Positions 1 through 37,895 of a stretch of 64,000 nt of DNA are shown piece by piece. Each line of letters opens with the position of its first letter. Within the stretch, counting starts at the first letter, position 1. The notes below the pieces were generated by a model that was not told where the DNA came from, did not search any database, and was given only the letters and a program-made list of their open reading frames with translations. The DNA is from an uncultured Actinomycetota bacterium (GTDB lineage: Bacteria; Actinomycetota; UBA4738; HRBIN12): the NCBI GenBank assembly GCA_963724415.1, contig CAVRUS010000011.1, forward strand, positions 561 to 64,560, given 5' to 3'. A program made the position numbers and the translations under genes.

Positions 1-13
1 CACTTTCAGGCGC

Positions 14-38
14 GCCCCGGGGCGACCCCCCCCGGGGC
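14..38 (+). other. GC-rich hairpin (gccccgggg / ccccggggc, 9-bp stem) ending 4 nt before the GTG at 43
   Basis: Self-complementary arms read directly in the sequence. It could terminate an upstream gene outside the window or act as a 5' structural element. Confidence 0.3.
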
Positions 39-42
39 TTCG

Positions 43-624
43 GTGTTCCCGAGGTTTGTGCAGCCCACGTCGTGGCGCCGCGCTCTTCAAGGCCGGTATC
101 GTGGCCTCATGGACACCTGGAACGCGCTGCGGGCTCGCCGGAACGTCCGCACGTACGAGGACGCACCGATCCCCGCGAAGCAACTCGATCAGATCCTCGA
201 AGCGGCCAGGCGCACTCCGTCTTCGATGAATCAGCAAGGGTGGGACTTCGTCGTCGTGACCGACCGCGACGACCTCCGCGAGCTCTCGAAGGCGTGGCGC
301 CACGCCGCGCACGTCGCGACGTCCGCGGCGACGATCGTGCTGGTGATCCCCGAGACCAGCGACCGCGACGAGCGCGACACCCTCTGGTACGACCTCGGGC
401 AGGCAACGATGTCGATCATGGTCGCGGCCGCCGACCTCGGGATCGGCAGCGGACACGCCTCGATCGGGGATCAGCAGCTCGTGCGCGAGCTGCTGGCCAT
501 CCCCGCGGCCCGGGAGCCCGCGATGTTGATCGCGCTCGGATCGCCGGCGGATCGATCGCTCACTCCGGTCGACCAACCCGCTCGGCGGCCGTTCGACGAC
601 GTGGTCCATCCTGGTCGCTGGTGA
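43..624 (+). CDS. nitroreductase family protein
   Basis: 193-aa ORF. The N-terminal RNVRTYEDAPIP and the later LGQATMSIMVAAADLGIGS motif are typical of the NADH/flavin nitroreductase fold. GTG at 43 or ATG at 109 are both possible starts. Confidence 0.75.
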   Translation: MFPRFVQPTSWRRALQGRYRGLMDTWNALRARRNVRTYEDAPIPAKQLDQILEAARRTPSSMNQQGWDFVVVTDRDDLRELSKAWRHAAHVATSAATIVLVIPETSDRDERDTLWYDLGQATMSIMVAAADLGIGSGHASIGDQQLVRELLAIPAAREPAMLIALGSPADRSLTPVDQPARRPFDDVVHPGRW

Positions 625-742
625 GCGAGTGATCCGTCATCGAGCCGACCGTAACTCGCTGAGCGCGCTGAGCGTCCAGTGCGGGCCCGGGCACGTGGTC
701 GACGACCACAAGAAACTCCCCCTCTGAGAGTGCCAGGCGCGG

Positions 743-1478
743 TGAGTCAGCCGCTCCACGGATGCAGGCCGGCCTCGCAGAACGACAGCGCCATGGGATC
801 GGGGTGCTCCTCCTCCCAGGCTTCCAGCGGGTCCAGGTACCAGAGGATGACCTTCCAGTCCTCGCCGTCGAACCCCATCTCGAAGCTCGCGAGGTGTCGC
901 TCGGCGCCGTCTCCCTCGTCGATCGCGGCGGTCCACGCCAGGTGGTAGGTCCGGCGTCGGGGGATGTCGGGACCACACGTGCCCACCCCGATCACGGTCG
1001 CGGAGCCGCCGCCGAGCTCGTCCGTGAACGCAGGGTCGATCCCGGAGATGACCGCGTCGAGCCGTTGCGCGTACGCCGATCTCGGGAGGAGGTCGACGAT
1101 GAAGTCCGCGCTGCTCAGGCCGTGTCCGGTGAGGACGTCGGCGTCCGCACACCCCGGGAAGTACTGACGCTCGACCCTGGCACACTCGATCGTGTCCGCT
1201 CTGCTGAGCCGGAGGAGGGTGGCGGCGTCCCGTTCGAGGAGCGCTCGCCCGATCCGAGTCGCCGTGTCGCAGAAGGCGTCATCCGTCACAGGACAACCGG
1301 CTCTCGTGAAGGTCGGCTCGGGGATCGGGGTCACGGTCGGAGATGGCGTCGAGACGCTCGGCGGGGGAGCCGATGGGCTCGGCTCCGGCGCGTCCGCGGA
1401 TCCGCAGGCGATCACGCCGACCAGCAGCAAGGACGCGAGGACCGACCACCTCATCTGCTCACACCTACGTAGGGAGGA
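743..1478. repeat. direct repeat copy A (about 736 bp, about 97% identical to 2518-3253)
   Basis: Near-identical nucleotide runs and near-identical six-frame ORFs: 747-1454 vs 2522-3247, 762-1472 vs 2537-3247, 637-1185 vs 2430-2960. Confidence 0.9.
747..1454 (-). CDS. putative lipoprotein (signal peptide with LVGVIAC lipobox), duplicated gene copy 1
   Basis: 235-aa ORF with N-terminal MRWSVLASLLLVGVIACGS followed by a Pro/Ser-rich linker. No recognisable domain. Confidence 0.65.
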   Translation of the reverse strand: MRWSVLASLLLVGVIACGSADAPEPSPSAPPPSVSTPSPTVTPIPEPTFTRAGCPVTDDAFCDTATRIGRALLERDAATLLRLSRADTIECARVERQYFPGCADADVLTGHGLSSADFIVDLLPRSAYAQRLDAVISGIDPAFTDELGGGSATVIGVGTCGPDIPRRRTYHLAWTAAIDEGDGAERHLASFEMGFDGEDWKVILWYLDPLEAWEEEHPDPMALSFCEAGLHPWSG

Positions 1479-1574
1479 GCCCGCCCGGTCGATGTCAGGC
1501 GACGCGGTCGAGCATGCTCCGAGTCAGTAATGTGCTGGACGGTGTGGGGCGAAGCCCACGTCAGGAGGGGTTCG

Positions 1575-1706
1575 ATGAACATCGGCGAGGAACGGCGGAC
1601 GATCTACATCGAGCCGATCGAGGAGCCGCCTCCGGCGGAGGATCCCGTCCCGATCGCCGAGCCGGTTCCGGACCCGAGGAGGGATCACGAGCTCGAGCCC
1701 GCCTGA
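1575..1706 (+). CDS. small ORF (43 aa, Pro/Glu-rich) with strong SD
   Basis: AGGAGGGG lies 6 nt upstream of ATG 1575 and the stop is TGA 1704-1706. It ends 8 nt before the ATG of the next gene. It is below the size cut-off of the ORF track. Confidence 0.4.
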   Translation: MNIGEERRTIYIEPIEEPPPAEDPVPIAEPVPDPRRDHELEPA

Positions 1707-1713
1707 CGATCGC

Positions 1714-2520
1714 ATGGATCCCTCGTCGGTTCGTGTACCCGACGGGATCGAGCCGATCTCCGCGTATCGCGCGTGGTTCTACTCGATCGAGGGCCGGAAG
1801 GCTCAGCTCCGTCCGCTCTCCGCCCCGAACATCTCATCGCGCGGGAACGGCTGGGACGGGGCGGGGGCGAACTGGGTGACCGCTTCATGCGCGCTGGTCG
1901 GGTCGTCGACCCATGAGGTGCCTTCGGAAGACTGCAGCTGTGGCTTCTATTCGCTCAAGGAGCTCGATCATGCCGTGGACCTTGCATCGCCCTTCCGTTT
2001 CATGTCGATCCCTGGCCGAAAGGTCGATCAGGTCGTCCTCGGCCGCATCCTGCTCTCCGGCAAGGTCATCGAACACGACTTCGGTTATCGGGCCGAGCGA
2101 GCTCGGATCGCTGAGCTGATCCCGTTCCGTGGCTCGGAGCGATCCGTCATGGTCCTGGCAGATCGCCTCGGGGTCGGGATGGGGTCCGCCGTGGAACCGA
2201 CCTCTCTGGAAGAGGAGATCCACGTCGCGCTCGCAGGCCCCGCGGCGCCACGGCCCGTTCGCGCGAAGGCTCCCTCCGATCCTACGGAAAGTGCGGTGCT
2301 CGGTGTCCTCGCGATCGTCTCGCTGATCGCCGCCTTCGTCGTCGCGGCCGCGTGGGGTCAGATCTGGGTCCCGTTGATCGTCGTGTCGATCGGTCAGATC
2401 GGGCGCTCCGCCGACTCGATGGCGAAGGCCTACCGGGCTCTGCGTGACTGGTCCGGCAGTGGATCGAACCGTCCGAGGTTGCTGCCACCGGTTCCCACCG
2501 GCCGCGGCGTGAAGCGCTGA
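1714..2520 (+). CDS. hypothetical protein with C-terminal transmembrane segment
   Basis: 268-aa ORF between the two repeat copies. It has a hydrophobic stretch AVLGVLAIVSLIAAFVVAAAWGQIWVPLIVVSIG and no domain I recognise. Confidence 0.55.
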   Translation: MDPSSVRVPDGIEPISAYRAWFYSIEGRKAQLRPLSAPNISSRGNGWDGAGANWVTASCALVGSSTHEVPSEDCSCGFYSLKELDHAVDLASPFRFMSIPGRKVDQVVLGRILLSGKVIEHDFGYRAERARIAELIPFRGSERSVMVLADRLGVGMGSAVEPTSLEEEIHVALAGPAAPRPVRAKAPSDPTESAVLGVLAIVSLIAAFVVAAAWGQIWVPLIVVSIGQIGRSADSMAKAYRALRDWSGSGSNRPRLLPPVPTGRGVKR

Positions 2521-3253
2521 GTCAGACGCTCCACGGATGCAGGCCGGCCTCGCAGAACGACAGCGCCATGGGATCGGGGTGCTCCTCCTCCCAGGCTTCC
2601 AGCGGGTCCAGGTACCAGAGGATGACCTTCCAGTCCTCGCCATCGAACCCCATCTCGAAGCTCGCGAGGTGTCGCTCGGCGCCGTCTCCCTCGTCGATCG
2701 CGGCGGTCCACGCCAGGTGGTAGGTCCGGCGTCGGGGGATGTCGGGACCACACGTGCCCACCCCGATCACGGTCGCGGAGCCGCCGCCGAGCTCGTCCGT
2801 GAACGCAGGGTCGATCCCGGAGATGACCGCGTCGAGCCGTTGCGCGTACGCCGATCTCGGGAGGACGTCGACGATGAAGTCCGCGCTGCTCAGGCCGTAT
2901 CCGGTGAGGACGTCGGCGTCCGCACACCCCGGGAAGTACTGACGAGCGACCCTGGCGCACTCGATCGTGTCCGATCTGCTGAGCCGGAGGAGGGCGGCGG
3001 CGTCCCGTTGGAGGAGCGCTCGCCCGATCTGGGTCGCCGTGTCGCAGAAGGCGTCATCCGTCACGGGACAACCGGCTCTCGAGAAGGTCGGCTCGGGGAT
3101 CGGGGTCGCGGTCGGAGATGGCGTCGAGACGCTCGGTGGGGGAGCCGATGGGCCTGGCTCCGGCGCGTCCGCGGATCCGCAGGCGATCACGCCGACCAGC
3201 AGCAAGGACGCGAGGACCGACCACCTCATCTGCTCACACCTACGTAGGGAGAG
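2518..3253. repeat. direct repeat copy B
   Basis: See copy A. It includes the gene start and about 24 nt upstream. Confidence 0.9.
2522..3247 (-). CDS. putative lipoprotein, duplicated gene copy 2
   Basis: Shares the MRWSVLASLLLVGVIACGS start with copy 1 and is about 95% identical in amino acids. The 429-aa extended ORF upstream is antisense of the 3390-3920 gene and is rejected. Confidence 0.65.
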   Translation of the reverse strand, partial: LRRCEQMRWSVLASLLLVGVIACGSADAPEPGPSAPPPSVSTPSPTATPIPEPTFSRAGCPVTDDAFCDTATQIGRALLQRDAAALLRLSRSDTIECARVARQYFPGCADADVLTGYGLSSADFIVDVLPRSAYAQRLDAVISGIDPAFTDELGGGSATVIGVGTCGPDIPRRRTYHLAWTAAIDEGDGAERHLASFEMGFDGEDWKVILWYLDPLEAWEEEHPDPMALSFCEAGLHPWSV

Positions 3254-3389
3254 CCCGCTCGGGACCTTCGCGCTGGTTCGAGTCGTTCTGCGACAACCCT
3301 TGCGCTCCGCGCAGGGGCACTCGTACGCTCCACGCGCGCAGCCCTTCCCTTCCGAGCTGCGGCCGATCCGGCAAGCGAGGAGGGTCAGG

Positions 3390-3920
3390 ATGGCGCGCAC
3401 CAGGGTCCGCAAGCTGGCCCCTATCGTCATCGGGCTGCTGCTCACCGCCTGCTCCTCCGAGGCGTTCGAATCCTCGCGGCACGGGTACAGCCTGGAGGTG
3501 CCTTCAGGCTGGGAGGTCACGGAGTACCCCGGAACGTGGACGCAGCTCGAGGAGTTCTCGCCGGGGGCAGAGGTTCCGGGGGAGGACGTCGTCGCTCCGC
3601 CGGACCTGTCGTCGTTCCTCGTGAGCAACTCGATGGAGATCCCCTCCGACATGACGGCGGCCGAGTGGCAGGAAGCCTTCGATGCGCTCGTGGCGCCGGC
3701 GCTGACCGAGGAGTGCCCCGGTACGACGGCAAGCGACGTCGTCGCGGGCGAGCCGGCGGCGGCGGTGGAACAGCCGTGCGAAGGGTCGATCATCGTCGGG
3801 CGGCGTCTCACGCACGCAGGACGCGGGTACTACTTCACGATCCGGTTCCCGGCCGATGATGCCGCTGCGAGGGAGACGCTCGAGAGCGTGGTTCAGTCGA
3901 TCGAGTTCATCGACGACTGA
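3390..3920 (+). CDS. putative lipoprotein (LLLTACSS lipobox)
   Basis: ATG at 3390 is preceded by GAGGAGGG. N-terminal MARTRVRKLAPIVIGLLLTACSSE. Its 3' end overlaps the convergent cyclase gene by 14 nt. Confidence 0.65.
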   Translation: MARTRVRKLAPIVIGLLLTACSSEAFESSRHGYSLEVPSGWEVTEYPGTWTQLEEFSPGAEVPGEDVVAPPDLSSFLVSNSMEIPSDMTAAEWQEAFDALVAPALTEECPGTTASDVVAGEPAAAVEQPCEGSIIVGRRLTHAGRGYYFTIRFPADDAAARETLESVVQSIEFIDD

Positions 3921-6900
3921 CCGTCAAGTGACCTCGGCGTGGGCCGGTGACGGTCGGGCGGACTCGATCCGCTCGAGGAGCGACACGGCGCCGATCCCCG
4001 TGAGGAACGCCGTGCTCTCGGCGAGGGCCTCGGTCGTGAGCTCCTCGTCCGGCAGGACGTGGGCCATGTCGGCGGCGCAGAACGCCTGATCCAGGCGGCG
4101 CGTCGAGCGCCCGCCACTCGCCGAGCGCTCGCTCGTACCCGGCGAGGGCGTCCTCGCGGCGGCCCTCGAGCGCCGCCAGGCCGGCCTCCGCCGTGCGGCG
4201 GACCGCGTCGATCCAACGTCCCCGGAGCGGCGCCATCGCCTCGAGCGCACGGCGGAGCCGATCCGGGTCGCGCAACCAGACGGCCGCGCGCGCGGCCTCC
4301 CGGGCGGCGTAGTGCGCGTTGACGCCGCTCGGTTCGAGCTCGACCGCTTCGATCGCGGCCTCGAACGCCGGGGCGGGATCGCCGCCCAGGAGGTGGACCA
4401 GCGCGGATTCGCGGCCGAACCACGTGTGCATCGCGAGCTGCTCCGCGGCCTCGATCCGCGGCGCGATCCCGTCGAGCCGGCGGCGCGCGGCGGCGACATC
4501 TCCCCGATGCGCCTGGAGGAGGATCTCGCAGAACTCGCGCGCGAGCTCGTTCTCCGTACCCAGTTCACGCCCCTCGAGGCGGTGGAGCGCCTCCTCGGCC
4601 TCTTCCCAGCTGCCCAGCTCGATGGCCCCCTCGGCTGCGTTGGTCAGCCCGTGCATCTCGCCGGCGCGGTCCCCTGCCCGCCGGGCCGTCTCGGCGCTCT
4701 CGAGGATCGCGCGGAGCGCTCCGGCCGGATCCTCCTCCAAGCTCCCGATCCCGATCGCCATGAGCGCCCAGCTCCGGTAGCGGAGGCTGCCGATCTCGTC
4801 GGCCAGCTCCAGCTCGCCGCGTCCGAGGATCGTCGCCTCCCGGTGGCGGCCGAGGTTGAAGTACGCGCCACCCTTCGCGTCCAGGGCCTCGATCATCACG
4901 TCGGTGAGGTGGAGCCGCTCGGCGATCGTCAGCGCGCGCTCGGCCAACGGGATCGCGGCCTCCACCGCGCCGGTCGCGCGCAGGGCCTGGGCGAGCTTCG
5001 CGCACAGCCGCGCCGCGACGTCTTCGTCGGCGTCGCCGAGGGCCTCCAGCGCGCGCTCCATCCGCTCCGCCGCCTCGGCCCGGCGGTCCTGTGGGCGGAG
5101 GACCTCGTACAGGTCGGCCGTCGCCCGGCCGGCGGCCGCGTGATCGCCCAGCTCCTCGTGGAGCGCGATCGCCTCCTCGTACAGCGCCTCGGCTCGGTCG
5201 AACCACGCCGCGAGTGTGGCGGCCGATGCGGCGGTGGTGAGGAGGGAGGCTCGCTCCGGCCCCTTCGGCGTCACGTCGAGGGCGATCTCCGCGTAGCCGA
5301 TCGCCTGCTCGGGCGAACCGAGCGAGAGCGCCCGCTGCGCCGCCTGGGAGAGCCAGTCGCGGGCGCGCGCGGCCAGCGCATCGGCCTCCGGTCCCTCCGG
5401 CGAAGCGCGGTACGCCTCGACGTAGTGGGTGGCGACGACGCCGGCGAGCTCGTCGTCGCTGAGCGACTCGAGATGGTGCGCGGCCGCGAGGTGCCGGCTC
5501 CGCCGGTCGGGCTTCGAGAGCGTCGAGTAGGCGACCTCCTTGATCAGCGCCTGCAGGAACGAGTACTGGCCTCGCTCCGGCGAGCGCGCGTCGACCTCGA
5601 GCCCGAGGAACTCCCTCCGGACCAGCTCGCGCAGCCGCGCCTCGACCTGCTCCCGGCCCGAGCCGGCGACGGCCGCCAGGCCTTCGACCGTGAAGGTCAT
5701 GCCGACGACCGAGGCGTCCTGCACCAGCGCGCGGTCCTCGGGCGGCAGCACGTCCAACCGTGCCGCGATCAGCGCGTGGAGCGTCTCGGGGATGGTGTCG
5801 AGGGTCCCGACCTCGCCCACGAGGACGTACGCGTCGTCGCGCGCTTCGAGCGCGCCGCGGTCGACCAGCATCCGGACGGTCTCCACGGCGTAGAGCGGCA
5901 TCCCCTCGGCGCGCGCGACGATCCGCTCGACGCTCTCCGGCGGCATGCCGTGGACGAATCCCTCGACGAGCTCGGCGATCACCGGGTCGGGGAGTCGCTC
6001 GAGGTGCATCGCGGTGAAGCTGCGCTGGCCGGATCCCCAGTTCGGGCGCTTGTCGGCGAGCTCGGGTCTCGCCATCGTGACGATCAGGATCGGATGGCTC
6101 TTCGACCACTCGAGGATCGACTCGATGAAGTCGAGCAACCCCGGGTCGGCCCACTGGAGGTCCTCGAAGACCATCACGATGGTGCCCTGCTCCGCGATCC
6201 GCTCGAAGAAGGCCCGCCACGCGGCGAACAGCTCCTCGCGGTCGCCGTGCGGAGCGGGGTCGAGCCCGAGCAGGTGCGCGAGCCGCGGCTCGATCCATCG
6301 CCGCTCGTCGGGATCCGAGACGAACTCGGCCACCGACGCCGAGAGCTTGCGCCGTGAGGTGGCCGGGTCGTCGGTCTCGGCGATCCCGGCCCGCATCCGG
6401 ACCATCTCGCCCAGGGCCCAGAACGTGACGCCGTCGCCGTAGGACGGGCATCGGCCGCGATGCCAATAGAGCACCTCGACGAAGCCGTCGATCCACTTGA
6501 GCAGCTCCCAGGCGAGCCGCGACTTGCCGACGCCGGCGATCCCGGTGACCGAGACGAGCCGAGCCTTCCGTTCGGCGCCGGTCGCGCGGACGAGCTCCTT
6601 GATCGAGCGGAGGTCCTCGGCGCGACCGACGAACGGAGGCTCGATCGCCTCGCCGCGGCCGGCGCCGCGGAGCTCGCCGAGGACGCGGAGCGCGCGCCAC
6701 GCGGGAACGACCGTCTCCTTGCCCTTCAACGTGAGGTCGCCGAACTTCTCGAACGCGATCGCGCGGCCGGTCGCCCGGACCGTCGTCTCGCCGACGAGGA
6801 CGGTGCCGGGCTCGGCCATCGACTGGAGCCGGGAGGCCGTGTTCACCAGGTCGCCCGCGACGATCCCCTGCGAGGTGGCGCCGACCGTCGCGGCGGCCTC

Positions 6901-7410
6901 GCCGGTGAGGACGCCTGCGCGGGCACGGAGGTCGGCGCCGACGTCCGCGCCGAGGGTCTCGACGGCCTCGAGCAGCTCGAGCGCCGCCCGGACCGCACGC
7001 TCGGCGTCGTCCTCGTGCGCCGCCGGCGTCCCCCAGACCGCCATCACGGCGTCGCCGATGAACTTCTCGACGAGACCGCCGTAGCGCTCGATCGTCTCCC
7101 GGGCCGTCTCGAAGTAGCGGGACAGCAGGTCGCGGACCTCCTCGGGGTCACGGCCCTCCGCGAGGTTCGTCGAGCCGACGAGGTCGGCGAACAGGACCGA
7201 CACGAGACGGCGCTCGGTCGACGGCGTGGCGGCGGCCGGGACGGGCGGGGCCGCGCTCGTGCCGATCGTCGCCCCGCACTCCCCGCAGAACTTGCTGTCG
7301 GGAGCGTTGGGCGCGCTGCATGCGTCGCAGACGATCACGAGCGCCGAGCCGCATTCCTTACAGAACTTGCGGCCCGGCTCGTTCTCGGTCCCGCAGTTCG
7401 AACAGTTCAC
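3907..7410 (-). CDS. double zinc-ribbon / class III adenylate-guanylate cyclase / STAND (AAA) NTPase / TPR protein, paralog 1
   Basis: 1167 aa. N-terminal CxxC pairs (CSNCG..CKECG, CDACS..CGECG). Cyclase motifs VSVLFADLVGST and KFIGDAVMAVWG. P-loop GIAGVGKS. A long TPR-like helical C-terminal region. The last 60 aa or so are low-complexity. Confidence 0.85.
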   Translation of the reverse strand: MNCSNCGTENEPGRKFCKECGSALVIVCDACSAPNAPDSKFCGECGATIGTSAAPPVPAAATPSTERRLVSVLFADLVGSTNLAEGRDPEEVRDLLSRYFETARETIERYGGLVEKFIGDAVMAVWGTPAAHEDDAERAVRAALELLEAVETLGADVGADLRARAGVLTGEAAATVGATSQGIVAGDLVNTASRLQSMAEPGTVLVGETTVRATGRAIAFEKFGDLTLKGKETVVPAWRALRVLGELRGAGRGEAIEPPFVGRAEDLRSIKELVRATGAERKARLVSVTGIAGVGKSRLAWELLKWIDGFVEVLYWHRGRCPSYGDGVTFWALGEMVRMRAGIAETDDPATSRRKLSASVAEFVSDPDERRWIEPRLAHLLGLDPAPHGDREELFAAWRAFFERIAEQGTIVMVFEDLQWADPGLLDFIESILEWSKSHPILIVTMARPELADKRPNWGSGQRSFTAMHLERLPDPVIAELVEGFVHGMPPESVERIVARAEGMPLYAVETVRMLVDRGALEARDDAYVLVGEVGTLDTIPETLHALIAARLDVLPPEDRALVQDASVVGMTFTVEGLAAVAGSGREQVEARLRELVRREFLGLEVDARSPERGQYSFLQALIKEVAYSTLSKPDRRSRHLAAAHHLESLSDDELAGVVATHYVEAYRASPEGPEADALAARARDWLSQAAQRALSLGSPEQAIGYAEIALDVTPKGPERASLLTTAASAATLAAWFDRAEALYEEAIALHEELGDHAAAGRATADLYEVLRPQDRRAEAAERMERALEALGDADEDVAARLCAKLAQALRATGAVEAAIPLAERALTIAERLHLTDVMIEALDAKGGAYFNLGRHREATILGRGELELADEIGSLRYRSWALMAIGIGSLEEDPAGALRAILESAETARRAGDRAGEMHGLTNAAEGAIELGSWEEAEEALHRLEGRELGTENELAREFCEILLQAHRGDVAAARRRLDGIAPRIEAAEQLAMHTWFGRESALVHLLGGDPAPAFEAAIEAVELEPSGVNAHYAAREAARAAVWLRDPDRLRRALEAMAPLRGRWIDAVRRTAEAGLAALEGRREDALAGYERALGEWRALDAPPGSGVLRRRHGPRPAGRGAHDRGPRREHGVPHGDRRRVAPRADRVRPTVTGPRRGHLTVSRR

Positions 7411-8105: not shown

Positions 8106-8540
8106 CTATCCGGTTGAAGGGCGTGGACCGGTGGCCGTGAAGTCCGCGGTCGAGCCGACCACGTCGACCTCGACCGTTTCGAACGACTCCTCGAGGATCC
8201 GACGGAGCCCGTCAGCGGTGTCCCCGAGGTTGTCGAAGTCGCCCTGCCAGTTGAACGCGCGCAGGCCCGCACGAGCCTGCGGCCGGTGTCGTTCCTCGAG
8301 GCCCAGGACGGTGCCGCCGAACAGCACACCTTCGGGCGCCAGAACATCGGCGATGTTCCGGATCGCCACGGCCTTGTTCGACTGCGGTCCCCGCAGGCAG
8401 TGGAGGACGTAGGTCAGCGCCACCGAGTCGAACGGACCCTCGACCGGCAGAGGCTTCATCACGTCCGCCTCGACGGGGGTCGGGTGCATCGCCGCGTGCC
8501 CGGAGGCCCAGAAGGGTTCCACCCTTCGTCGCCGGCGCAC
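8106..8540 (-). pseudogene. class I SAM-dependent methyltransferase, 5'-truncated fragment
   Basis: Only the C-terminal half is present (FDSVALTYVLHCL...LAPEGVLFGG). The GxGxG motif I region is absent upstream. Confidence 0.4.
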
Positions 8541-8735
8541 AGCGAGACATGGTGGTCCTGACGGTAGGTCCTGCGTGCCGTTCTCTCCGTAAGCCGTTTG
8601 GGCGGCTTTACGGAGAACCGCCGTCGGGTTATCGAAGCGGACACAGCGTAGTCACGATCGCGCTTGATCGTTCATCCGCTCAGTTGACAGAGGGGCAGCC
8701 GGTCGCCTGGCCGGCGCCGAGGGAGGTGGTCTCCG

Positions 8736-9545
8736 GTGGCGAGACTCGCGAGGACACGCGAAGCGATGGCCCCGAGGCGAGGCGTGCGCCTGCACCCGGT
8801 CGAGGTGAAGGACGGCAAGGCGTTCATCGGAACGAGACATATCCACCTCGGTCGTCGGAAGGACAAGAAGGATCCTCGCGACAGGATCGCGAGCCTTCCG
8901 CGACCGAGGCGAGCCACTGCGGTCCAGCTTCCCGACTTCAGATACTGGGCCGATTCCGTGTGGCGAGGCGATCAAGGGTCGTTCCCTCATTGCGTCGCGT
9001 ACTCGGCCGTCCATCGGATCGAGAACTCGCCGACGACATATCCGGCGTCCGGCCCGGTGGTCGCTCCGACGGACGTCTACGCGCGGGCGCAGCAGATCGA
9101 CGAGTGGCCGGGTGAGGCCTACGACGGAACCTCCGTGCGTGCCGGCGCGAAAGTGATGTTGGAGAAGGGTTTCATCTCGGAGTACCAGCGGATCACGTCG
9201 CTCCAGGAGCTCATCGACTTCCTTCGTTCGCCAGCGTCCGCGGGCGGCGGACCCGTGTTGATCGGGATCGACTGGCACGAGGACATGTTCTCGCCCGTCT
9301 ACGAGCAGGACGCGCTCGGCGACTATCGATGGCTGCTGATACCCACAGGGGCGGTCTCCGGCGGACATGCCGTCCTCGTGAACGGGGTCAACGTTCCTCG
9401 GGAGACGTTCAGGATCCTGAACTCATGGGGCCGTGACTGGGGCGTCGACGGCCGGGCGTCGATCCGCTTCGCCGACATGGATGACCTCCTGTTCTCGCAG
9501 GGTGGAGACGCCTGGAGGTACGTCGAGCAGCGCTCTGCGACGTGA
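8736..9545 (+). CDS. papain-like (C1 family) cysteine peptidase
   Basis: DQGSFPHCVAYSA matches Gln19/Cys25 of papain, GGHAVLVNGVN matches His159, and NSWGRDWGVDGRASIRF matches Asn175 of the NSWG motif. GTG 8736 has an upstream GGGAGG; ATG 8766 is the alternative start. Confidence 0.8.
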   Translation: MARLARTREAMAPRRGVRLHPVEVKDGKAFIGTRHIHLGRRKDKKDPRDRIASLPRPRRATAVQLPDFRYWADSVWRGDQGSFPHCVAYSAVHRIENSPTTYPASGPVVAPTDVYARAQQIDEWPGEAYDGTSVRAGAKVMLEKGFISEYQRITSLQELIDFLRSPASAGGGPVLIGIDWHEDMFSPVYEQDALGDYRWLLIPTGAVSGGHAVLVNGVNVPRETFRILNSWGRDWGVDGRASIRFADMDDLLFSQGGDAWRYVEQRSAT

Positions 9546-9586
9546 AGCAGGTCTGACGTGGAGCACACGCTGAGGGGGGCTCGCTG

Positions 9587-10531
9587 ATGGACTGGCCTGT
9601 GGTCGAGGTCGTGATCGGACTTTCGTTCATGTTCTTCTTGATCAGCATCGTCGCGTCCGCGACGAACGAGGCGATCGCCGGCATCTTCAAGTTGCGTGCG
9701 CGTTCGCTCGAGCAGGGCATCAAGAACCTCCTCACAGGCTCGACCGTTCCGGCCGCCAGGGTGGATCTCGAGATCGTCAGGAAGCTCTACGACCACGCGC
9801 TCGTGAACGGGTATCAGAAAGGCACCGACAAGAAGGAGCCCAAGCACGAACACGAGGATGCCTACAAGGGCGGGCCTTCGTACCTGTCTTCACGTTCGTT
9901 CCGGAACGCGCTCCTCGACATCACCGAGTTGCTCGAGGCGACGGCCGACCCCGCCGACGACCCGATCCCCGTGAAGGAACTCCGCGAGGCGGTCGAGGCG
10001 AAGATCAACGACCTGCCGAGCCACCTCAAGCACTCGCTGATGGCGATCTGGAGGTCCGCCAACAAGGATGCGGCCGAGTTCCGCGAGGGCGTGGAGCGAT
10101 GGTTCGATCGCGGCATGGAGCGCGTCTCCGGCTGGTACAAGCGACGGACGCAGGTGATCCTATTCGTGGTTGGGTTCGTCGTTGCGATCGCGATCAACGC
10201 GAGCGCGCTCACGGCAGCGGACCAGCTCTGGAAGGACGACGGGCTCCGGAAGGGCCTCGTTGCTCAAGCGGATCAGCAACAGGAGTCCGTCGAGGGGACG
10301 ACTGCGCTGGAACAACTCAGAGAGCTCGAGTTCCCGATCGGGTGGGGGGAATCGACTCGGCCGGACGACGTCGGAGGGTGGTTGCTCGCGATCGTCGGAT
10401 GGGTGATCACCGGTCTCGCTGTCACGCTCGGCGCGCCGTTCTGGTTCGACGCGCTCGGGAAGGTGAGCAACCTCCGGGCGGCGGGCGCCAAACCAACCAG
10501 TTCGGTCACCCCGCCAACGTCGACGAAGTAG
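9587..10531 (+). CDS. hypothetical membrane protein
   Basis: 314-aa ORF with the SD GAGGGGGG. It has N- and C-terminal TM helices and somewhat lower GC than its surroundings. Confidence 0.6.
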   Translation: MDWPVVEVVIGLSFMFFLISIVASATNEAIAGIFKLRARSLEQGIKNLLTGSTVPAARVDLEIVRKLYDHALVNGYQKGTDKKEPKHEHEDAYKGGPSYLSSRSFRNALLDITELLEATADPADDPIPVKELREAVEAKINDLPSHLKHSLMAIWRSANKDAAEFREGVERWFDRGMERVSGWYKRRTQVILFVVGFVVAIAINASALTAADQLWKDDGLRKGLVAQADQQQESVEGTTALEQLRELEFPIGWGESTRPDDVGGWLLAIVGWVITGLAVTLGAPFWFDALGKVSNLRAAGAKPTSSVTPPTSTK

Positions 10532-10647
10532 GTCGCGGAGGTGAAGCTCAACATCGAGTCGCCCTGATGCGACCTCCGCTCAGAGGACGTTCCGAAGCAT
10601 CGTCGGCGTCGCGTCTTCTTCCGGCGTCTCGCCCTCTGACTTCTGCT

Positions 10648-11685
10648 TCAGATAGCGATCGCTGAACTCGGTGTTGAGCTCGACCCACATCGGGAGGTGA
10701 TCGGACATCTGGTAAGTGCGCCAATCCCGGTAGTAGCGCTCCTTGCCTGCTTCATCGCGGTGTTGCCCCTGGACGACGTCTCATAGGCGCCGCCCATGTC
10801 GTCGATGTAGGTCATCTCGTCGTCGTCTTTGTACACCGAGTCGTAGTAGTTGAAGACGCCGCCCTTCGCCTCCTTGAGCTGATCGGCAGCATCCATCGTG
10901 ATGAATGCGATCTGGTCATAGAACTTCGTGCGCGGCGCGTTGGACGGAAGCTCCTTGAGTCCTTCCGGCACGACGAACCCCGCATCGAGGAGGGCCTTCA
11001 TCGTCAGGTCCTCCGGCGAGAAGATGTTGAAGTCTCCGAGCAGGATCATGTTGGGAGCCCACGCGAACGGCTCGTTCGCACGCGCGGCGAGGAACTCCGC
11101 GAGCAGACCGATCTCAGCCACGCGACGCGGATCCTCCGCCACAGCGCTGCCATACAGGATGTGCGTGGTGCAGATCGTGAACGCGAACCAGCCGACCCGG
11201 AATCCGACGATGAACGGCGTCCGGGCGAGCTGGTCGGCGGGGCGGTACTCGCCTCCTCCCATCGCGATCGGGGGGATCACGACCTCGCCGGCGAGGCCGC
11301 CGAAGGAGACCTTGCGTTCGTCGTACAGGAACGCCATGCGTTCCTAGTTGCCCGGCATCCCTTCCGTGACGTCGGTGAGGATGTACCGCCACCACCGGCC
11401 GAGGTAGTAGCGGAGTCGGTTCAGTGCTTGCAGATCGTCGCGGACCTCCTGGATCGCGACGACGTCGAATCGGCTGACGATCTCCGCGATATATAGGAGC
11501 GACTCCTGTGACCGCTCGCCGTACTTGGGCGAGTCGAACTCCCGGATGTTCCACGTCGCGAGGAGCAGGTTGTCGATCGTGCGACGTGGGATCTGGTGAT
11601 CGAGCTCGTCCTTGACCGTAAGGAGGCGATCGGCCGTTCGACGATCGCGATCACTGGCCGGGTCCAGGTCCGTGTATGAGGGCAT
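10648..11685 (-). pseudogene. endonuclease/exonuclease/phosphatase (EEP) family protein interrupted by an in-frame TAG at 11341-11343
   Basis: The N-part LLATWNIREF (11344-11685) and the C-part MILLGDFNIFSPED (10648-11337) are in the same frame, separated by a single amber codon (..GMPGN*ERMAFLY..). Confidence 0.7.
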
Positions 11686-11690
11686 GGTCC

Positions 11691-12734
11691 TCAGCCGATA
11701 ACCGGTGAGCCACTCACCGACTGGCTCGGCGACTGGCAATCGACGAAGGCATCGATTCGCATCGGCTCCGAGGGCGAGCTGGTCGAGCCGCTCGTGTTCG
11801 AGCCAGTCACCACAACGCGAACGGCGGGGCAATCGCTCGTCGTCGGGGTGTAGGAAGACATCGTAGCTCCGACGATATCCGTGCAGCCGTCCGGACCGTC
11901 CTCAGAGCGACAGGCGCCCTGCCACTGGTACGTGAGGTCCGGCGGGGGTGAGCCAGCCCAATCGCCTCCGATCGCCACGAAGGTCGGTTCACGATCGTCG
12001 ATGAAGGGTTCTCCTTGGGGAAGCGGGATGAGGCCGAGGGCGGCTGCCTGCTGGGCGAAGACCACCTCGTCTGGCGGGTTGAAATTGACGCTGACGAGCC
12101 TTGACTCTCCCGTGTCGAACGAGTGCTCGAGACCCATCCCCGGAGGGATCAGCCACGTCTGACCGTTCGGATCGATGGCCTCTACCGACCCCGCGAAGGT
12201 GGAGACCACGAACACGGGGTCGGCGTCGCAGGTCGTGCTGATCTGTACTGCGTCTGAGACCAGGAGCGTCCCCAAGCCGCAGAGGTCTTCTTGGCCACCG
12301 GCCTTGAACGTGCACAGTGCCCGACCACCGAGGATCCGGAACACCGTATTTTCCTGTTCGCGGGTGACCGCCGAGGCGATCTTCCCGGTCCCTGGGTCTT
12401 GACTGAATTGACACAGGGCGAGCTGACCGAACGCGAGGTCGACCACTCCGCTTCGGTCCACCCGCAGCCGCGTCAGGCAGGCGACCTGTCGGCGTTCCGT
12501 GAGTTCCGCAAAGGAGCCGCCGTCCGGCGGCAGGATCTCGATGAGTCCGCCGCCTGGATCTGCGAAGTCGTCATCGAACACGCACTCGGGTGAGTCCGAG
12601 TCGGTGGGCGACGGGGTCGCTGTCGTGGTCGACGTCTGCGTGTTCGACGGGGTGTTCGAACCCGATCCTCCCCCGGCGCAAGCCGCGAGCAGAACGAACT
12701 GCGCGACGAGGACGATCGAGCGCTTACCCCACAC
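11691..12734 (-). CDS. putative secreted lipoprotein (LLAAC lipobox), Cys-rich
   Basis: GTG start with an upstream GGAGG. N-terminal MWGKRSIVLVAQFVLLAACAGG followed by a Thr/Ser-rich linker. Confidence 0.6.
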   Translation of the reverse strand: MWGKRSIVLVAQFVLLAACAGGGSGSNTPSNTQTSTTTATPSPTDSDSPECVFDDDFADPGGGLIEILPPDGGSFAELTERRQVACLTRLRVDRSGVVDLAFGQLALCQFSQDPGTGKIASAVTREQENTVFRILGGRALCTFKAGGQEDLCGLGTLLVSDAVQISTTCDADPVFVVSTFAGSVEAIDPNGQTWLIPPGMGLEHSFDTGESRLVSVNFNPPDEVVFAQQAAALGLIPLPQGEPFIDDREPTFVAIGGDWAGSPPPDLTYQWQGACRSEDGPDGCTDIVGATMSSYTPTTSDCPAVRVVVTGSNTSGSTSSPSEPMRIDAFVDCQSPSQSVSGSPVIG

Positions 12735-12827
12735 TCACGTGCCTCCGACGGTGCCAGGCGTCAACGAGTGCCTTCTCCCAGCGCCGCAGGCTGGCCATCA
12801 GGCCTTGCACAGCCACGCCGAGCGGCG

Positions 12828-14277
12828 TTACCACGAACACCCCGACGAAACCTCCCAACAACGGGACGATGATTCCCGGGTCGCGATCCACTCGGACGGG
12901 ACGAGCTCGCCCGTTTCGGTCAGAGCGCTCGTGGTGGTGACCGAGTGCATGAAGAGCGATTGCTGTCCAGTTTCAAGTTTGAGAGTGGCAGCGAACGGAT
13001 CGCTGGGATCGGCCTCGAGCGTGAGGACCGCGGGCGACGAGAACGCAGTCGCATCGCCGGGGGATAGGACGATCTGTCCCGAGAGTCCCTCCAGATCGGC
13101 GCGCGCCCCGTAGGCTTTCAGGGTCAACCCGTCGACGGAGCGGAGCTCGAACGTTGGCGGAACACCTCCCTCGCCCGACCCGATGACCAGATGAAGTGAG
13201 CCCTCGCATCGGGTCACCGCTTCCTCGCCCGTGAACTCGACCAGCGACGTGAGGTCTCCTCGCGATACCTCGAGCGTGACGCCTGGCCCGGGCGCACTGA
13301 AGCACAGACTCGGCGTCGATCGCGTGCGGGTGAAGAGCGCGACCCCGATGGGATCCGGGAGCGAGCCGAAGGGCGCGATGTCAAGGCTCCGCCCTTCTAC
13401 CCTGGCGCCGCCGCTGGAAACGTATTGCGGGCTCGACCACGTGAGCTCGACTGGCGTCCTCGCGATCCGGACCTCTCCGTCCACGCACTCGCCATCTAGG
13501 TCGTCCGCCAACCTGTCGCATCTCGTGTCCGGCAGCGGAAGGAGGACCACCGCCGTTCCGTCCGTCGCCCCGCTTACCGCGAGCTCTCGGACGTATCCGC
13601 CCTCGAGCGACCAGCGTACGGATCCGGGACCTCCCCTCATCGTGAGGTGACGGAGCGTCGTGACGCTCTGCGTCGTCACGGTGGCCGCCACCGGCGGTCG
13701 CCAGTCGTGGAGCACGTTGTACCCGGTGATGGCAAGGCTCGCGCCCACCATCGCGAGGATCAAGGCGAGGACGCCTGAGGTGCTCGATGCCTGGGGCCGA
13801 GATTCCCGAAATGCGCTCGCGAGGATCGCACGATCCTCAGGGGTGAAGACTGGCCGTCGCGCGCCACCCCAGAACTCGTCGTGTTCCTGGAGATCGGAGG
13901 GGTAGATCCACGCCTCCTTCACCCGTCCATTGGCCATCGAGAACCGGACGCATTGCCGATCGCTCAACGCCCGCCCGTTCCTGGAGGCCGTGAGGTGTTG
14001 CCACGCCACCAGGTCCGGTCCGCGCTCCGATACGTCCTCGAGCTCGATCCGGACGCTGTCGTCCGAGAGTTCGCCGAGCGAACGGAAGTACGCATCGATC
14101 TTCTCGACGCCGGCGAACGTCCCTGCGACGCGGCTGCGTCCCGGGACGTGCAGGACGGCGTCCGGCGCGAAGACGAGATCTCCCCGCGAATCGCCACTGA
14201 GGAACGAGGCGTAGTCGCGCTCGAAGTCTGAGCGTCGGCGCGACCGCGCCGGTTGGCGGGTTCGTCCACAGCGCACG
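12828..14277 (-). CDS. SnoaL/NTF2-like domain / TM / extracytoplasmic domain protein (start uncertain)
   Basis: DYASFLSGDSRGDLVFAPDAVLHV...ANGRVKEAWIYPSD is a SnoaL-like fold, followed by the TM helix VLALILAMVGASLAITGY and a domain of about 300 aa. The upstream 130 aa of ORF 12828-14630 are RG-rich and rejected. The GTG at 14277 is a guess. Confidence 0.55.
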
Positions 14278-14593
14278 ATGGTTCGCCCCCTGGTCGATGC
14301 GCTCCGGAGTCTGCTACCGATGGGAACCGACGTCCCGTGGTTCTTTCGGGGGACAGAGGAAGCACTATTGATTCGGCATGACGTAGGCGTACGGTCACGG
14401 AGCGGGGGTGGACCGTGGCGTTCGATTTCGCGTACGAGCAGGAGCTCGAGAACGAGGCTCGCGGACGGGCCCGGGCTGGAAGCCGGGGACGCCTCTCCGC
14501 ACCCGACCCTCCGACTACCCAGGAACCATCGTTCCACTCGTGGTCCAGGGGGAGACGCTCGGGGGATACGTCTTCGATGAAAGGAGGCCCTGA

Positions 14594-15298
14594 TTGAACG
14601 CTTACGAGCAGGGGCAGTGGCGAGCGACACATAAGAACGGACAGATCCCTCGTGGTGAGCTCGCGGAGATCCCCGGCGATCAAGACAAGGATCTCCTAGG
14701 GCCGGCCCTCATGCATCCCGAGGCCACATGGAACTTCCAACGCATGCGGGAGGCGGCCAAGCACGTCGGCGTGAACCTGGAGATCTCGTACAGCTACCGC
14801 ACCTACGAGAAGCAGGTGCACAAATACGAGATCTTCAAGAACGGCGGGAATCTCGCCGCCACCCCCGGCACCTCGAATCACGGGTGGGGCCTCGCGCTGG
14901 ATCTCAGCATCCCCGAGTACCCGGCGGCGAATAGCAACGCGCAGTTCAAGTGGCTAAAGGCCAATGCTCTTCGATTCGGTTTCCACAATAACGATGCTTC
15001 GTCCGAACCATGGCATTGGGACTACGAAGGCGGACATCCTATGGAGGAGGACCAGATGACCCCGGAAGAGAAGGCGGAGTTCGAGGAACTGAAGAAGTTG
15101 GTCGCGGACCACGAGAAGCTCATCACGGCGTTGCGCGAGGGTTTGGGCTCGGCCGACGACCCCGCGGCGTTCTTGGGGGCAGGCAACCGCGTCGCGACTT
15201 CGGTTCGGAGGTCCGAAGAGGAGAAGAAGGAAAACAGCGACGGTGATGATGGGGCGAAGAAGGCAAAGGGTGCCAAGGGTGTGAAGACGCCAGGCTGA
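14594..15298 (+). CDS. M15B/VanY-like D-Ala-D-Ala carboxypeptidase (peptidoglycan peptidase)
   Basis: Motifs SNHGWGLALDL and SEPWHWDY. TTG start with AAGGAGG 6 nt upstream. GC is clearly lower, with a Lys-rich tail. Confidence 0.8.
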   Translation: MNAYEQGQWRATHKNGQIPRGELAEIPGDQDKDLLGPALMHPEATWNFQRMREAAKHVGVNLEISYSYRTYEKQVHKYEIFKNGGNLAATPGTSNHGWGLALDLSIPEYPAANSNAQFKWLKANALRFGFHNNDASSEPWHWDYEGGHPMEEDQMTPEEKAEFEELKKLVADHEKLITALREGLGSADDPAAFLGAGNRVATSVRRSEEEKKENSDGDDGAKKAKGAKGVKTPG

Positions 15299-15334
15299 AC
15301 AGTGCCCTTCCGGTCGGCGCCGAACGAGAGGGCG

Positions 15335-16165
15335 ATGTCCGATCCATCGACTCTGCCGATGAGAGGCAGTGGCACGATGCGAGCAGAGGCGGAACGGCTC
15401 GCGTGCTTCCCTGGGGAACGGCTCGAGTTCCGCGCGTGGCCTGGATCCAACCGCCGGGACGAGGACATCGAGTGGTCGGGGGGTGGTGCCCCCACCGCGG
15501 CGAGCGGCCGCACGTTCCGTTCATCGTTCGAACGCGCCGGCGCCCACACCGTTCGCGCTCGCTGCGGCGAGGCAGCGGTCGAGTTCGTCGTCACCGTGTG
15601 CCCTGTGGCCGACTGGATCGCGGAGGCGGCCGAGTTCTACGGACCGTCCCTCGACCTCGAGGGCATCCGCGTCAAGTCCAGCCGTTTGGTCCTGGGCAAG
15701 AGTGGCACGGGTTTCACCTGCAACCGGGTGATCCGTTTCAAGCGGCCACGGACCGAAGCGGATCTCCCCTCATCGTCCACCCTCGTGCACGAGCTCGGCC
15801 ACGTCTGGGAGCACCAGGACGGACGCGCGCAACTGGTGCGCGGGCTCGTCGAGCAGGTGGGGAGATGGTTCGGGCGGGATCCGTACGACTACGGCGGTCC
15901 GGCTGGCACGGCTGCGACGACGGACCTGTCGTCGCTGCGTCTGGAGAGCCAGGCGCAGATCATCCAGGAACTGTGGCGAGCTCGCCACGGCGCTCCCGAG
16001 GACAGGCGTGAGAACGCCTTCACGCCCACCTACGTCGCAGACCTGCAGCGGCTCGTCGACGGGGCGGGGATCGGCACGAGGCCACCCCGTGGGAGGACGG
16101 CCGCGTCCACGATCGACGGTGTCGTCGCAGGAATCGTCAACGTCGTGGTAGACCTCGCGGGTTGA
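15335..16165 (+). CDS. HExxH zincin-like protein (DUF4157-like)
   Basis: TLVHELGHVWEHQDG resembles the HELxHVxQ signature. The ATG at 15335 is preceded by GAGAGGG. Confidence 0.5.
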   Translation: MSDPSTLPMRGSGTMRAEAERLACFPGERLEFRAWPGSNRRDEDIEWSGGGAPTAASGRTFRSSFERAGAHTVRARCGEAAVEFVVTVCPVADWIAEAAEFYGPSLDLEGIRVKSSRLVLGKSGTGFTCNRVIRFKRPRTEADLPSSSTLVHELGHVWEHQDGRAQLVRGLVEQVGRWFGRDPYDYGGPAGTAATTDLSSLRLESQAQIIQELWRARHGAPEDRRENAFTPTYVADLQRLVDGAGIGTRPPRGRTAASTIDGVVAGIVNVVVDLAG

Positions 16166-16194
16166 CGGATCACGTCGCGGGAAGGGAGCGATCC

Positions 16195-17962
16195 ATGACC
16201 GACGAGCACCATCGAGCGGGCGCCTCAGAGGCTCCTCCACGACCGAAGGATGAGTCCGGGCCCGAGCTGGAATTCACTCGACGCCCGCGGATGGTCCGGT
16301 GGCTGTCGCCGACGCAGCTCGTTCACACGGGACGTCAGGCGCTCTTCGCCGTCCTGATGTCGGGCTACTCGGACAAGCGAGAGATCCAAGCGGCGCTCCC
16401 GTCGCCGGGTGTCGTCGACCGCTCCGACAACGACGCGATCTGGATCGACTTCGTCTCCGACCTCGGTGACGGCTTCAATCCCACGTACACGCTCGCATAC
16501 CTTCTGGCCAAGCCGTCCCTCGATCTTCCCGATCCCAAGCCCCGCGGAAGCATCCTCGTGATGGGCGGCGATCAGGTGTATCCGGTCGCGAGCCAGAAGC
16601 GCTATCGGAACAAGCTGGTCGGTCCGTTCCGAGCAGCGCTCCCGTACCTCGCCGAGGATGAGCCGGAGCTGTTCGTCGTCCCGGGCAACCACGATTGGTT
16701 CGACGGGCTCACGTCGTTCATGCGCGCCTTTTGCCAACGGGGATGGGTCGGAGCGTGGAGGATGCAGCAGACGCGCTCGTACTTCGCGGTCAAGCTCCCG
16801 CATCACTGGTGGCTCTGGGGAGTGGACATCCAGTTCGACAATTACATCGACTGGCCCCAGCTCGAATACTTCCTCACGGTGGCCGAGGGCGTGCAGAAAG
16901 GCGACGGGGTCATCGTCTGTCTCGCCAAGCCGAGCTGGGTCGACGCGAACGCCGCGGAACCCAACCCTGGATCCGGACGTGTATGCGACGTTCGACTACC
17001 TCGAGCGGAAGGCGATCATCGCCCGCGGAGCGTCGATCCCGCTGGCGATCAGCGGCGACCGGCATCACTATGCCCGGTACGAGGAACGCTCCGACGGACA
17101 TCGTCAGCGCATCACGTGTGGAAGCGGCGGTGCCTTCCTCTCCGATACCCACGGCCTTCCCGATCCGATCGTGGTGCCGCATCCAGAGGCGAGCAGACGA
17201 TCCCCCACGCCGCCAAGCACCTACTCGCTCGAGAAGCGCTACCCGGAGAAGCGCGACTCCATCAAGCAGGCGCGGCTCCATGTCTGGTCCCTGCTCTGGC
17301 GCAATGACGCGTTCCCGGTGCTCGTCGGCGCCGTGGCCTTCGTCTTCGCTTTGCTGGGACGAGGCGCGATCGCTCAGGGCGGGCAGTCGCTCTGGGCGAT
17401 GCCCGATGACTGGTGGCGGCGCGTCCTCACGTGCCTCATCGCCGGGTTGCTCCTCCTCGCGCTGGTCGGGTTCACGAAACACGCGCAGCTCCTCCGTGCC
17501 TGGGGGCTCGGGCTTCTCCACACGGTCATGCATCTCGCAGCGATCGCCGCCACTGCGTGGGCGGCCAGTGGCATCGTGCACGCCTGGGGGCCCGGTCTCT
17601 CGAAGGACTGGCATATCGGCCTGACGCTCGGCGGCACCTTCGTGCTGTATGCGATCGTGGGCTGCGAGATCTTCGCCCTCTATCTCCTGATCGCCGACGG
17701 ATTCCGCATGAACCGTACGGAGCTCTTCGCCGCGATGCGGGTGCAGGACCGCAAGGGCTTCCTGCGGATGAAGATCGACGCTGAGGGGTGCACCGTCCAT
17801 CCCGTGAAGGTCGAGAAGGTCCCTCGGAAGTGGCGGTTGCAGCCCACGGGCGGACCCAGTGACCCGTGGTTCACGCCCGTCGACCGCCGATCCGGTCCCG
17901 GAGCTGATCGAGCCACCGTTCCTCGTCCCTCGTGGTGGTCCGGAACCTCGGAGGGGAGCTGA
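16195..17962 (+). pseudogene. calcineurin-like metallophosphoesterase with C-terminal membrane region, frameshifted near 16950-16975
   Basis: GDQVYP and GNHDW are in frame 1. SGDRHHYARY and four TM helices are in another frame (ORF 16658-17962). The total length is not a multiple of 3. Confidence 0.7.
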
Positions 17963-17963
17963 C

Positions 17964-20395: not shown

Positions 20396-20404
20396 TCCGG
20401 TCGG

Positions 20405-21949: not shown

Positions 21950-22016
21950 CGGACCGGAGTCGAGGAGAGCCCTTCTGGGGGCCTCGAGCGCGCCGGCCGG
22001 GTCGCGAGGGAGATGT

Positions 22017-22894: not shown

Positions 22895-22900
22895 GCCGGT

Positions 22901-23788: not shown

Positions 23789-23820
23789 CCGCGGCACCTC
23801 GAAGGGGTCATCTTCATCGG

Positions 23821-34658: not shown

Positions 34659-34705
34659 GCGGATCCCGCCTCGTCCTCGGGAAGCGCGTGGCATAGGCTC
34701 CACTG

Positions 34706-37893: not shown

Positions 37894-37895
37894 AC

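Follow-up and report, generated by a model that had tools for sequence, protein, structure and literature searches.

A direct repeat carrying two lipoprotein gene copies around a conserved s43-X module in an uncultured soil Actinomycetota bacterium, a probable remnant of an old tandem duplication

RESULTS

Two copies of a lipoprotein gene lie on either side of the s43-X gene pair

The 64,000-nucleotide stretch of contig CAVRUS010000011.1 analyzed here (the window) comes from an uncultured Actinomycetota bacterium. Near its left end, it carries two copies of a lipoprotein gene (lipo), lipoA and lipoB, in direct repeats that lie on either side of two further genes, s43 and X (Table 1). An earlier note on this DNA, made from the sequence alone, described a direct repeat of ~97% identity between positions 743 to 1478 and 2518 to 3253, with a full lipoprotein gene and an upstream stretch with a putative ribosome-binding region in each copy. 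An independent repeat search and a base-by-base check confirm this description, place both lipoprotein open reading frames (ORFs) on the minus strand, and show the repeat to be slightly larger than first described. The core of the repeat is 738 bp long, with 19 mismatches and no gaps (97.4% identity) at an offset of 1775 bp, and a match of this length at 97% identity is far above chance expectation. Runs of 223 bp and 96 bp are identical between copies A and B, and on the right side similarity continues to ~1488/3262 with one 1-nt indel.

Homology starts at the position that corresponds to 743/2518, at TGAGTCAG, in all other genomic contexts that we compared, and the repeat unit as seen across contexts is 743 to 1491 (~749 bp). 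It comprises the lipo gene together with 8 nt beyond its stop codon and 37 nt ahead of its ATG. The two copies have the same orientation and high identity over this whole unit, as tandem duplicates do, and the end of one unit meets the start of the next at 2517/2518, where the 3' end of X abuts the 3' end of lipoB; the stop codon of X consists of the three bases with which copy B begins. The two genes between the copies are also as the earlier note had described them, a 43-aa ORF with a strong Shine-Dalgarno (SD) sequence (AGGAGG, 6 to 11 nt upstream) and a 268-aa protein with a C-terminal transmembrane segment, which in our model is one or two hydrophobic helices.

Table 1. Features of the lipo locus, with window junctions and partial copies found at related loci (L numbers)
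Feature	Position in window	Strand	Description
Nitroreductase gene	43-624	+	Left flank; also the left flank in L002
Terminator-like hairpin	715-731	-	Directly downstream of lipoA, outside the repeat
Repeat copy A	739-1488		Ungapped core 739-1476; 1-nt indel relative to copy B beyond the core
lipoA	747-1454	-	Predicted secreted lipoprotein, 235 aa; signal peptide, lipobox VIAC (Cys17), six conserved Cys
lipoA/s43-X divergent intergenic region	1455-1574		Only the first 37 nt belong to the repeat
s43	1575-1706	+	43-aa micro-protein; N-terminus MNIGE[EQ]RRTIYIEPIEEP, then variable Pro/Glu-rich tail; strong SD AGGAGG
X	1714-2520	+	268 aa; N-domain at residues ~1-160, then C-terminal transmembrane helices
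Repeat copy B	2514-3262		Core 2514-3251, 1775 bp downstream of copy A
lipoB	2522-3229	-	Paralogue of lipoA, 235 aa, intact ORF; signal peptide and lipobox VIAC
lipoB/L2 divergent intergenic region	3230-3389		Differs from the upstream context of lipoA
L2	3390-3920	+	176-aa lipoprotein, lipobox LTAC
Zinc-ribbon/adenylate cyclase/AAA_16/TPR gene	3907-7410	-	Conserved right anchor in L001, L002, L005, L006, L037, L047
Junction nitroreductase/lipoA			Also in L002
Junction lipoA/s43			Also in L001-L003, L006, L007, L016
Junction X 3' end/lipo 3' end	2517/2518		Also in L001, L004, L005, L006, L016, L037; decayed stubs in L002, L003
Junction lipoB/L2			Also in L005
L002 remnant			68 bp of lipo 3' end right after X; 87% identical to own lipo; period 1777 bp
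L005 remnant			262-bp lipo fragment and 75-bp X stub beside intact lipo; 89%; spacing 726 bp
L001 remnant			117-bp X stub on far side of lipo; 86%; period 1749 bp
L006 remnant			X-derived sequence, ≥246 bp, on far side of lipo; 87%; period 1742 bp

Related loci share the junctions of the window and vary in copy state

The earlier note had proposed a comparison with orthologous loci. When this is done, every junction in the window is found to recur in an independent assembly (Table 1), and L002, one of the closest relatives, is 96.5% identical to the window at the DNA level. Copy state is polymorphic among these loci: L002 and L005 have a single intact lipo gene together with a lipo stub, and L001, L006, and L016 have a lipo gene that is flanked by X-derived sequence. 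X stubs that adjoin lipo are 87 bp long in L016, 157 bp in L004, and 81 bp in L037. Neither a second locus with two intact lipo copies nor an insert-free state was retrieved.

The earlier note had also called s43 and X a two-gene insert, and this does not agree with the arrangement in other genomes. The s43-X pair is a conserved operon that adjoins lipo in all close relatives, and the order lipo (minus), s43 (plus), X (plus) is common to the window and to L001 to L003, L006, L007, and L016. In the more distant L039, lipo and s43-X are 3.2 kb apart with their relative orientation unchanged, and the adjacency of lipo and s43-X therefore reflects a shared neighborhood, not insertion. A homologue of s43 lies directly upstream of X at ~25 of 31 loci in Actinomycetota metagenome-assembled genomes (MAGs), down to 35 to 40% X identity. 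The 1039 bp between the repeats have a GC content of 0.667, compared with 0.69 in the flanks; family searches detected no integrase, replication, or transfer gene in this segment, and a tblastn search with X of 50,697 phage and 72,556 plasmid records gave no match. Family searches likewise detected no transposase in the repeats, such as a composite transposon would have. The unit ends lack inverted repeats, no target-site duplication is seen around 739 to 3262, and the outer flanks are unrelated. An attC site, which an integron cassette would have downstream of its ORF, does not fit into the 8 nt between the lipo stop codon and the unit end. We found no empty site among the retrieved loci.

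lipoA and lipoB differ from each other at least as much as from the copies of other strains

lipoA and lipoB differ at 19 sites over 738 bp, and the copies of the window differ from those of other strains at 12 to 15 sites (14 for A and L002, 13 for B and L002, 13 for B and L004, and 15 for B and L005). The distance between A and B is thus no smaller than the distance to copies from other strains, and the window has its junctions in common with relatives in which most of one copy has since disappeared. These observations do not support the suggestion in the earlier note that the duplication is recent. The ten lipo copies that we compared show no grouping by flank type. All four gametes are present in 159 of the 253 pairs of informative sites, and the minimum number of recombination events (Rm) is at least 12 in 749 bp. 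On ~23 informative sites, the comparison suggests that lipoA and lipoB are not sisters.

The differences between the copies are not evenly distributed. Sixteen of the 19 mismatches fall in positions 1091 to 1380 (P = 8e-5), and nearly all of the 17 codon differences (11 nonsynonymous and 6 synonymous) are in codons 25 to 122. The synonymous divergence (dS) between A and B is 0.074 in codons 25 to 122 and 0.012 in codons 123 to 235, and the overall ratio of nonsynonymous to synonymous divergence (dN/dS) is 0.6. This clustering would fit conversion tracts, uneven constraint, or both. The intact copies are 97% alike, in contrast to stubs that are 86 to 89% like their partners, a pattern that would fit homogenization by gene conversion or allelic recombination along with stronger constraint on the C-terminal half.

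X is far more variable than lipo. It is 46 to 92% identical between strains whose lipo genes are 93 to 98% alike, and in L016 an X of 46% identity stands next to a lipo gene of 96% identity, with a break in homology inside s43 at window position 1630. In this locus (L016 positions 4913 to 5882, MAG MFD00072.bin.1.11), the X stub, lipo, the intergenic region, and the first 55 nt of s43 are 94 to 95% identical to window positions 739 to 1630 and 2427 to 3255, and the rest of s43 and X is only ~46% identical at the protein level, a sharp recombination break within s43.

lipoA and lipoB encode predicted NTF2-like lipoproteins

The N-terminus of both lipoproteins, which bears the lipobox, is MRWSVLASLLLVGVIAC, as read from the sequence without a dedicated predictor. 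Its signal peptide and a lipobox of the form [LVI][ASTVI][GAS]C are those of a bacterial lipoprotein, and lipidation is predicted. Cys17 is at least 90% conserved among 22 lipo homologues. Homologues form 116 clusters, all from soil-type metagenomes and Actinomycetota MAGs; a metagenome scan with lipo yielded 5 short loci. The six cysteines and the motif GVGTCGPDIPxRRTYHLAWTA are invariant. The protein has no match to a Pfam or NCBIfam family, including SnoaL, DUF4440, and similar families, and neither PHROGs, PADLOC, nor a PDB sequence search gave a match. The AlphaFold (AF2) model has a predicted local distance difference test (pLDDT) score of 84, and Foldseek matches it to NTF2-like/SnoaL-type structures such as SgcJ (PDB 4ovm; E = 2e-5, probability 1.0), with target-normalized template modeling (TM) scores of 0.5 to 0.67. 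Among the 20 PDB hits at E ≤ 1e-3, the only one that is not NTF2/SnoaL-like is a CaMKII holoenzyme model. We therefore predict that the mature domain has an NTF2-like cone-shaped alpha+beta fold, in which case the lipoprotein would define an unannotated family of exported NTF2-like proteins.

The two genes have different upstream regions, with lipoA divergent from s43-X and lipoB from L2, an unrelated lipoprotein gene, and are for this reason probably under different regulation. The terminator-like hairpin downstream of lipoA has no counterpart at lipoB. A sigma-70 promoter scan found no promoter, although the consensus may not suit this phylum, and an Rfam search of window positions 1 to 4200 with permissive E-values gave nothing credible.

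s43 and X form a conserved unannotated module

The stop codon of s43 is 7 nt ahead of the start of X. The homologues of s43 at L008 to L032 are 40 to 48 aa long with an invariant N-terminus, and they are followed by a protein that has a putative C-H-C-C Zn site. The ~160-residue N-domain of X has invariant C59, H67, C74, and C76, which are likely to form this putative Zn site, as well as the motif GK.IEH..GYRAE.AR. The hydrophobic C-terminal helices of the X model span residues 190 to 213 and 219 to 248. Neither s43 nor X has a match in Pfam, PHROGs, NCBIfam, or PADLOC, and X has no PDB relative by sequence search or by Foldseek. Compared with BFVD, the X model (pLDDT 74) matches two uncharacterized phage proteins (E = 1e-10 and 4e-8) and, weakly, DUF7666 (E = 2e-3, TM score 0.2 to 0.27); a literature search found no paper that mentions DUF7666.

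Among 1.84 billion representatives, a threshold of E ≤ 1e-3 gives 4243 clusters for the X family, and some of its members have a LuxR-type helix-turn-helix or sigma-70 region 2 in place of the C-terminal membrane helices, a pattern of fusions that suggests a regulatory role for X. Neighbor clustering around distant s43-X loci, which is blurred by shadow ORFs, brought out only cyclase/AAA-type and GAF-containing large proteins. Tandem s43-X pairs are present at other loci (L018, L020, L025, and L026), and we therefore regard this neighborhood as prone to duplication. We also considered whether s43 begins with a conserved RNA element. We rejected this idea because an invariant peptide, encoded in a genome of 69% GC, accounts for the ~90% nucleotide identity of this stretch.

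The X protein of the window (positions 2497 to 2520) ends in ...PPVPTGRGVKR and the family consensus in ...PPVPPAAA, each directly before the stop. The last 7 residues are frameshifted because of one extra C (TTCCCACC versus TTCCACC). The frameshifted end occurs wherever the 3' end of X abuts lipo (the L001 stub and L005), and the first bases of the lipo unit supply the stop codon.

The interval to the right of X is hypervariable

The interval between X and the conserved cyclase/AAA/TPR gene contains L2 in the window and in L005, nothing in L006, and three different genes in L001 and in L002; in L037 and L047, lipo lies directly beside the cyclase gene. L2 has no match in Pfam, PHROGs, NCBIfam, or PADLOC, and at ≥90% identity it was found only in this contig and in L005, which makes it a rare accessory gene of the variable region. 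Paralogues of the zinc-ribbon/adenylate cyclase/AAA_16/TPR gene are present in the window at 3907 to 7410, 28588 to 30368, 34661 to 37894, and 61950 to 63769 and cross-match at 65 to 73%; such genes are frequent neighbors of s43-X in relatives (L039, L047, and L017).

About 17 kb of the window (8500 to 25775) is absent from L037, which joins 8500 directly to 25775, and GC content dips to 0.64 to 0.66 at 8 to 18 kb of the window. A mobile origin of this segment (8.5 to 25.8 kb) was considered and dropped, as the Pfam scan gave metabolic domains alone (SnoaL_2, GMC oxidoreductase, patatin, and acetoacetate decarboxylase) and no mobility genes. Defense-like genes lie beside the lipo/X locus in L001 (1 to 4854), L004 (2240 to 2773), and L045 (3644 to 6748); they include GmrSD, an AAA_19/AAA_30 helicase, an RNase_H_2-domain protein, an N6 methyltransferase fragment, and PLDc with a helicase. 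The variable region may border a defense island.

DISCUSSION

Based on the geometry of the repeat, the junctions and stubs shared with other loci, and the mosaic polymorphism of the copies, we think it probable that this locus is what remains after a lipo-s43-X unit was duplicated in tandem, an event that would be fairly old, with copies that recombine in a rearrangement-prone region. The repeats would then be paralogous copies of one unit, a gene for a secreted NTF2-like lipoprotein with its 37-nt leader, flanking a resident s43-X operon, and the window would hold 1.4 units of a tandem lipo-s43-X array with a period of 1775 bp. Such an array could have arisen by unequal or illegitimate recombination in the variable region beside the conserved cyclase/AAA/TPR gene. 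The simplest ancestor would be an array of at least two lipo-s43-X units that was trimmed differently in each lineage, with a two-copy state older than the split of the strains in the sampled public metagenomes. Recombination or gene conversion of the intact copies with each other and with population alleles, together with purifying selection on the C-terminal half, may have kept them 97% alike. The 738-bp repeats could serve as substrates for RecA-type recombination, which would either delete the 1775-bp unit, leaving nitroreductase, a hybrid lipo gene, and L2, or amplify it. The earlier note had called the structure unstable and a possible site of amplification or excision. At the population level this is a fair description, given the single-copy loci with stubs and the reciprocal haplotypes with X on both sides of lipo, and such events may still be taking place.

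Several points weigh against a tandem-array origin. An array that later eroded and stepwise copying would both be compatible with the data. Within one genome, X stubs have diverged by 13% from the intact X, compared with just 2.6% between lipoA and lipoB; this either calls for conversion or points to separate duplications of lipo and of X. No other retrieved contig has two intact lipo copies, the combination of full X, full lipoB, and L2 is unique to the window among these loci, and the predicted deletion product, nitroreductase-lipo-L2, is absent from all loci compared.

Two other explanations for the pair of intact copies would dispense with an old array. If the duplication had occurred recently within this genome, the copies would be just starting to diverge, and this would account for their 97.4% identity without indels over 738 bp, for the long identical runs, and for the intactness of both ORFs. 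It is nevertheless unlikely, because lipoA and lipoB are separated by more differences than separate either from other strains, because their polymorphisms are shared mosaically with those strains, and because the junction of X with lipoB and stubs of the second copy are present in L002, L003, and L005, which means that the two-copy state is older than these lineages. The other possibility is that a metagenome assembler stitched together two strain haplotypes, one like L002 (lipoA-s43-X) and one like L005 (lipoB-L2). The divergence of A and B does equal that between strains, the L002 and L005 haplotypes, with one intact copy each, coexist in sample ERZ25039547, and we found no second contig with both intact copies; the source is itself a MAG contig, 386,793 bp long. 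However, L002 and L005 each keep a stub of the copy that is intact in the other, and a two-copy ancestor therefore existed. The sequence that both haplotypes share at the would-be join is ~143 bp, the window differs from both L002 (96.5% identity) and L005 (97.6%), and the related assemblies were made from Nanopore reads with Flye (record titles; PMC12313526), so that reads of several kilobases span the 2.5 kb in question. We consider an artifact of this kind quite unlikely.

The remaining alternatives invoke mobility. A single crossover of the Campbell type, by which s43-X or the whole 1775-bp unit entered as a foreign element via a lipo copy and might leave again as a circle, would produce exactly the observed topology of homologous direct repeats around a unique 1039-bp segment. 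The position of lipo between X and s43 in L001, L006, and L016 is the junction expected of a circle or a tandem array, and the sole structural relatives of X are the uncharacterized phage proteins. What makes such an entry very unlikely is that the middle segment is a conserved chromosomal neighbor, with s43-X chromosomal and conserved at 31 MAG loci and next to lipo in all close relatives, and that it differs from a Campbell-type integrant in having neither replicon nor integrase genes, no transfer gene, no phage or plasmid match, a GC content near that of the flanks, and no empty counterpart among the retrieved loci. A mobile gene cassette, in which the ~749-bp lipo unit has defined ends and inserts at new sites, would explain why homology has the same start and ends with CCCGGTCG in many combinations of flanks (N, X, cyc-5', and other on the left; s43, L2, cyc-3', J6, and other on the right). 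A brief TCTCG-like string directly adjoins the unit on both sides in L045 and L039 (GCGGCATCTCTCG, unit, TCTCGT...), by chance or as a trace of target duplication. Against a cassette, what stands to the left of the unit is the same X 3' end trimmed to different lengths (4, 13, and 75 to 157 nt), without a single clean cut, and several contexts have their ancestral flanks in common, with GCGGCATCTCTCG to the left of the unit and TCGTCACACCGAGCGG to its right, so that a handful of rearrangements suffices. There are also no inverted repeats, no recombinase, and no room for attC, and the empty site, which would read GCGGCATCTCTCG-TCACACCGAGCGG, was not found. We regard the cassette as highly improbable.

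Tandem duplication with later trimming remains our preferred explanation, and a more far-reaching version of it would make the 1775-bp unit a contingency module of variable copy number, in which exchange between the repeats amplifies, deletes, or swaps the hypervariable X, and s43-X a new and widespread regulatory pair of a micro-protein and a Zn-binding-domain protein that is either membrane tethered or fused to a helix-turn-helix. This is speculative, and we would give it some chance but no great one. There is nothing unusual about the locus as a duplication. It offers a clear natural case of paralogues that persist and recombine in a rearrangement hot spot of an uncultured soil actinomycetote. 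The conserved two-gene s43-X module is a more promising lead than the duplication, since its relatives number in the thousands and their LuxR-type and sigma-factor fusions suggest an undescribed regulatory system. General understanding would change only if the function of the module or recombination-driven switching were shown.

Among known systems, the predicted fold of the mature lipoprotein domain resembles the NTF2-like proteins of the SnoaL/SgcJ type (PDB 4ovm). lipo differs from them in that it belongs to no curated sequence family, is exported and predicted to be lipid anchored, has six conserved cysteines, and is ~50 residues larger.

Bacterial paralogues can evolve in concert by gene conversion, as tufA and tufB do. 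The lipo genes resemble tufA/tufB in that the intact paralogues are much more alike than the stubs and their partners, with clustered differences and mosaic polymorphism. The lipo copies are ~1 kb apart, unlike the distant tuf loci, and conversion between them is suggested by sequence patterns. The mosaicism could be explained equally well by exchange with alleles of other strains.

The locus also resembles duplication-amplification by unequal homologous recombination, a model that comes from the genetics of Salmonella and Escherichia coli. Copies in the same orientation, a fixed period, an end-to-start junction, a variable copy state, and repeats that at 738 bp are long enough for RecA-dependent deletion or amplification are all common to that model and to the lipo locus. 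In contrast to a fresh duplication-amplification, the window has 1.4 units that are 2.6% diverged and appear to be as old as the strain splits, and the right end of the array would have been replaced by an unrelated lipoprotein gene.

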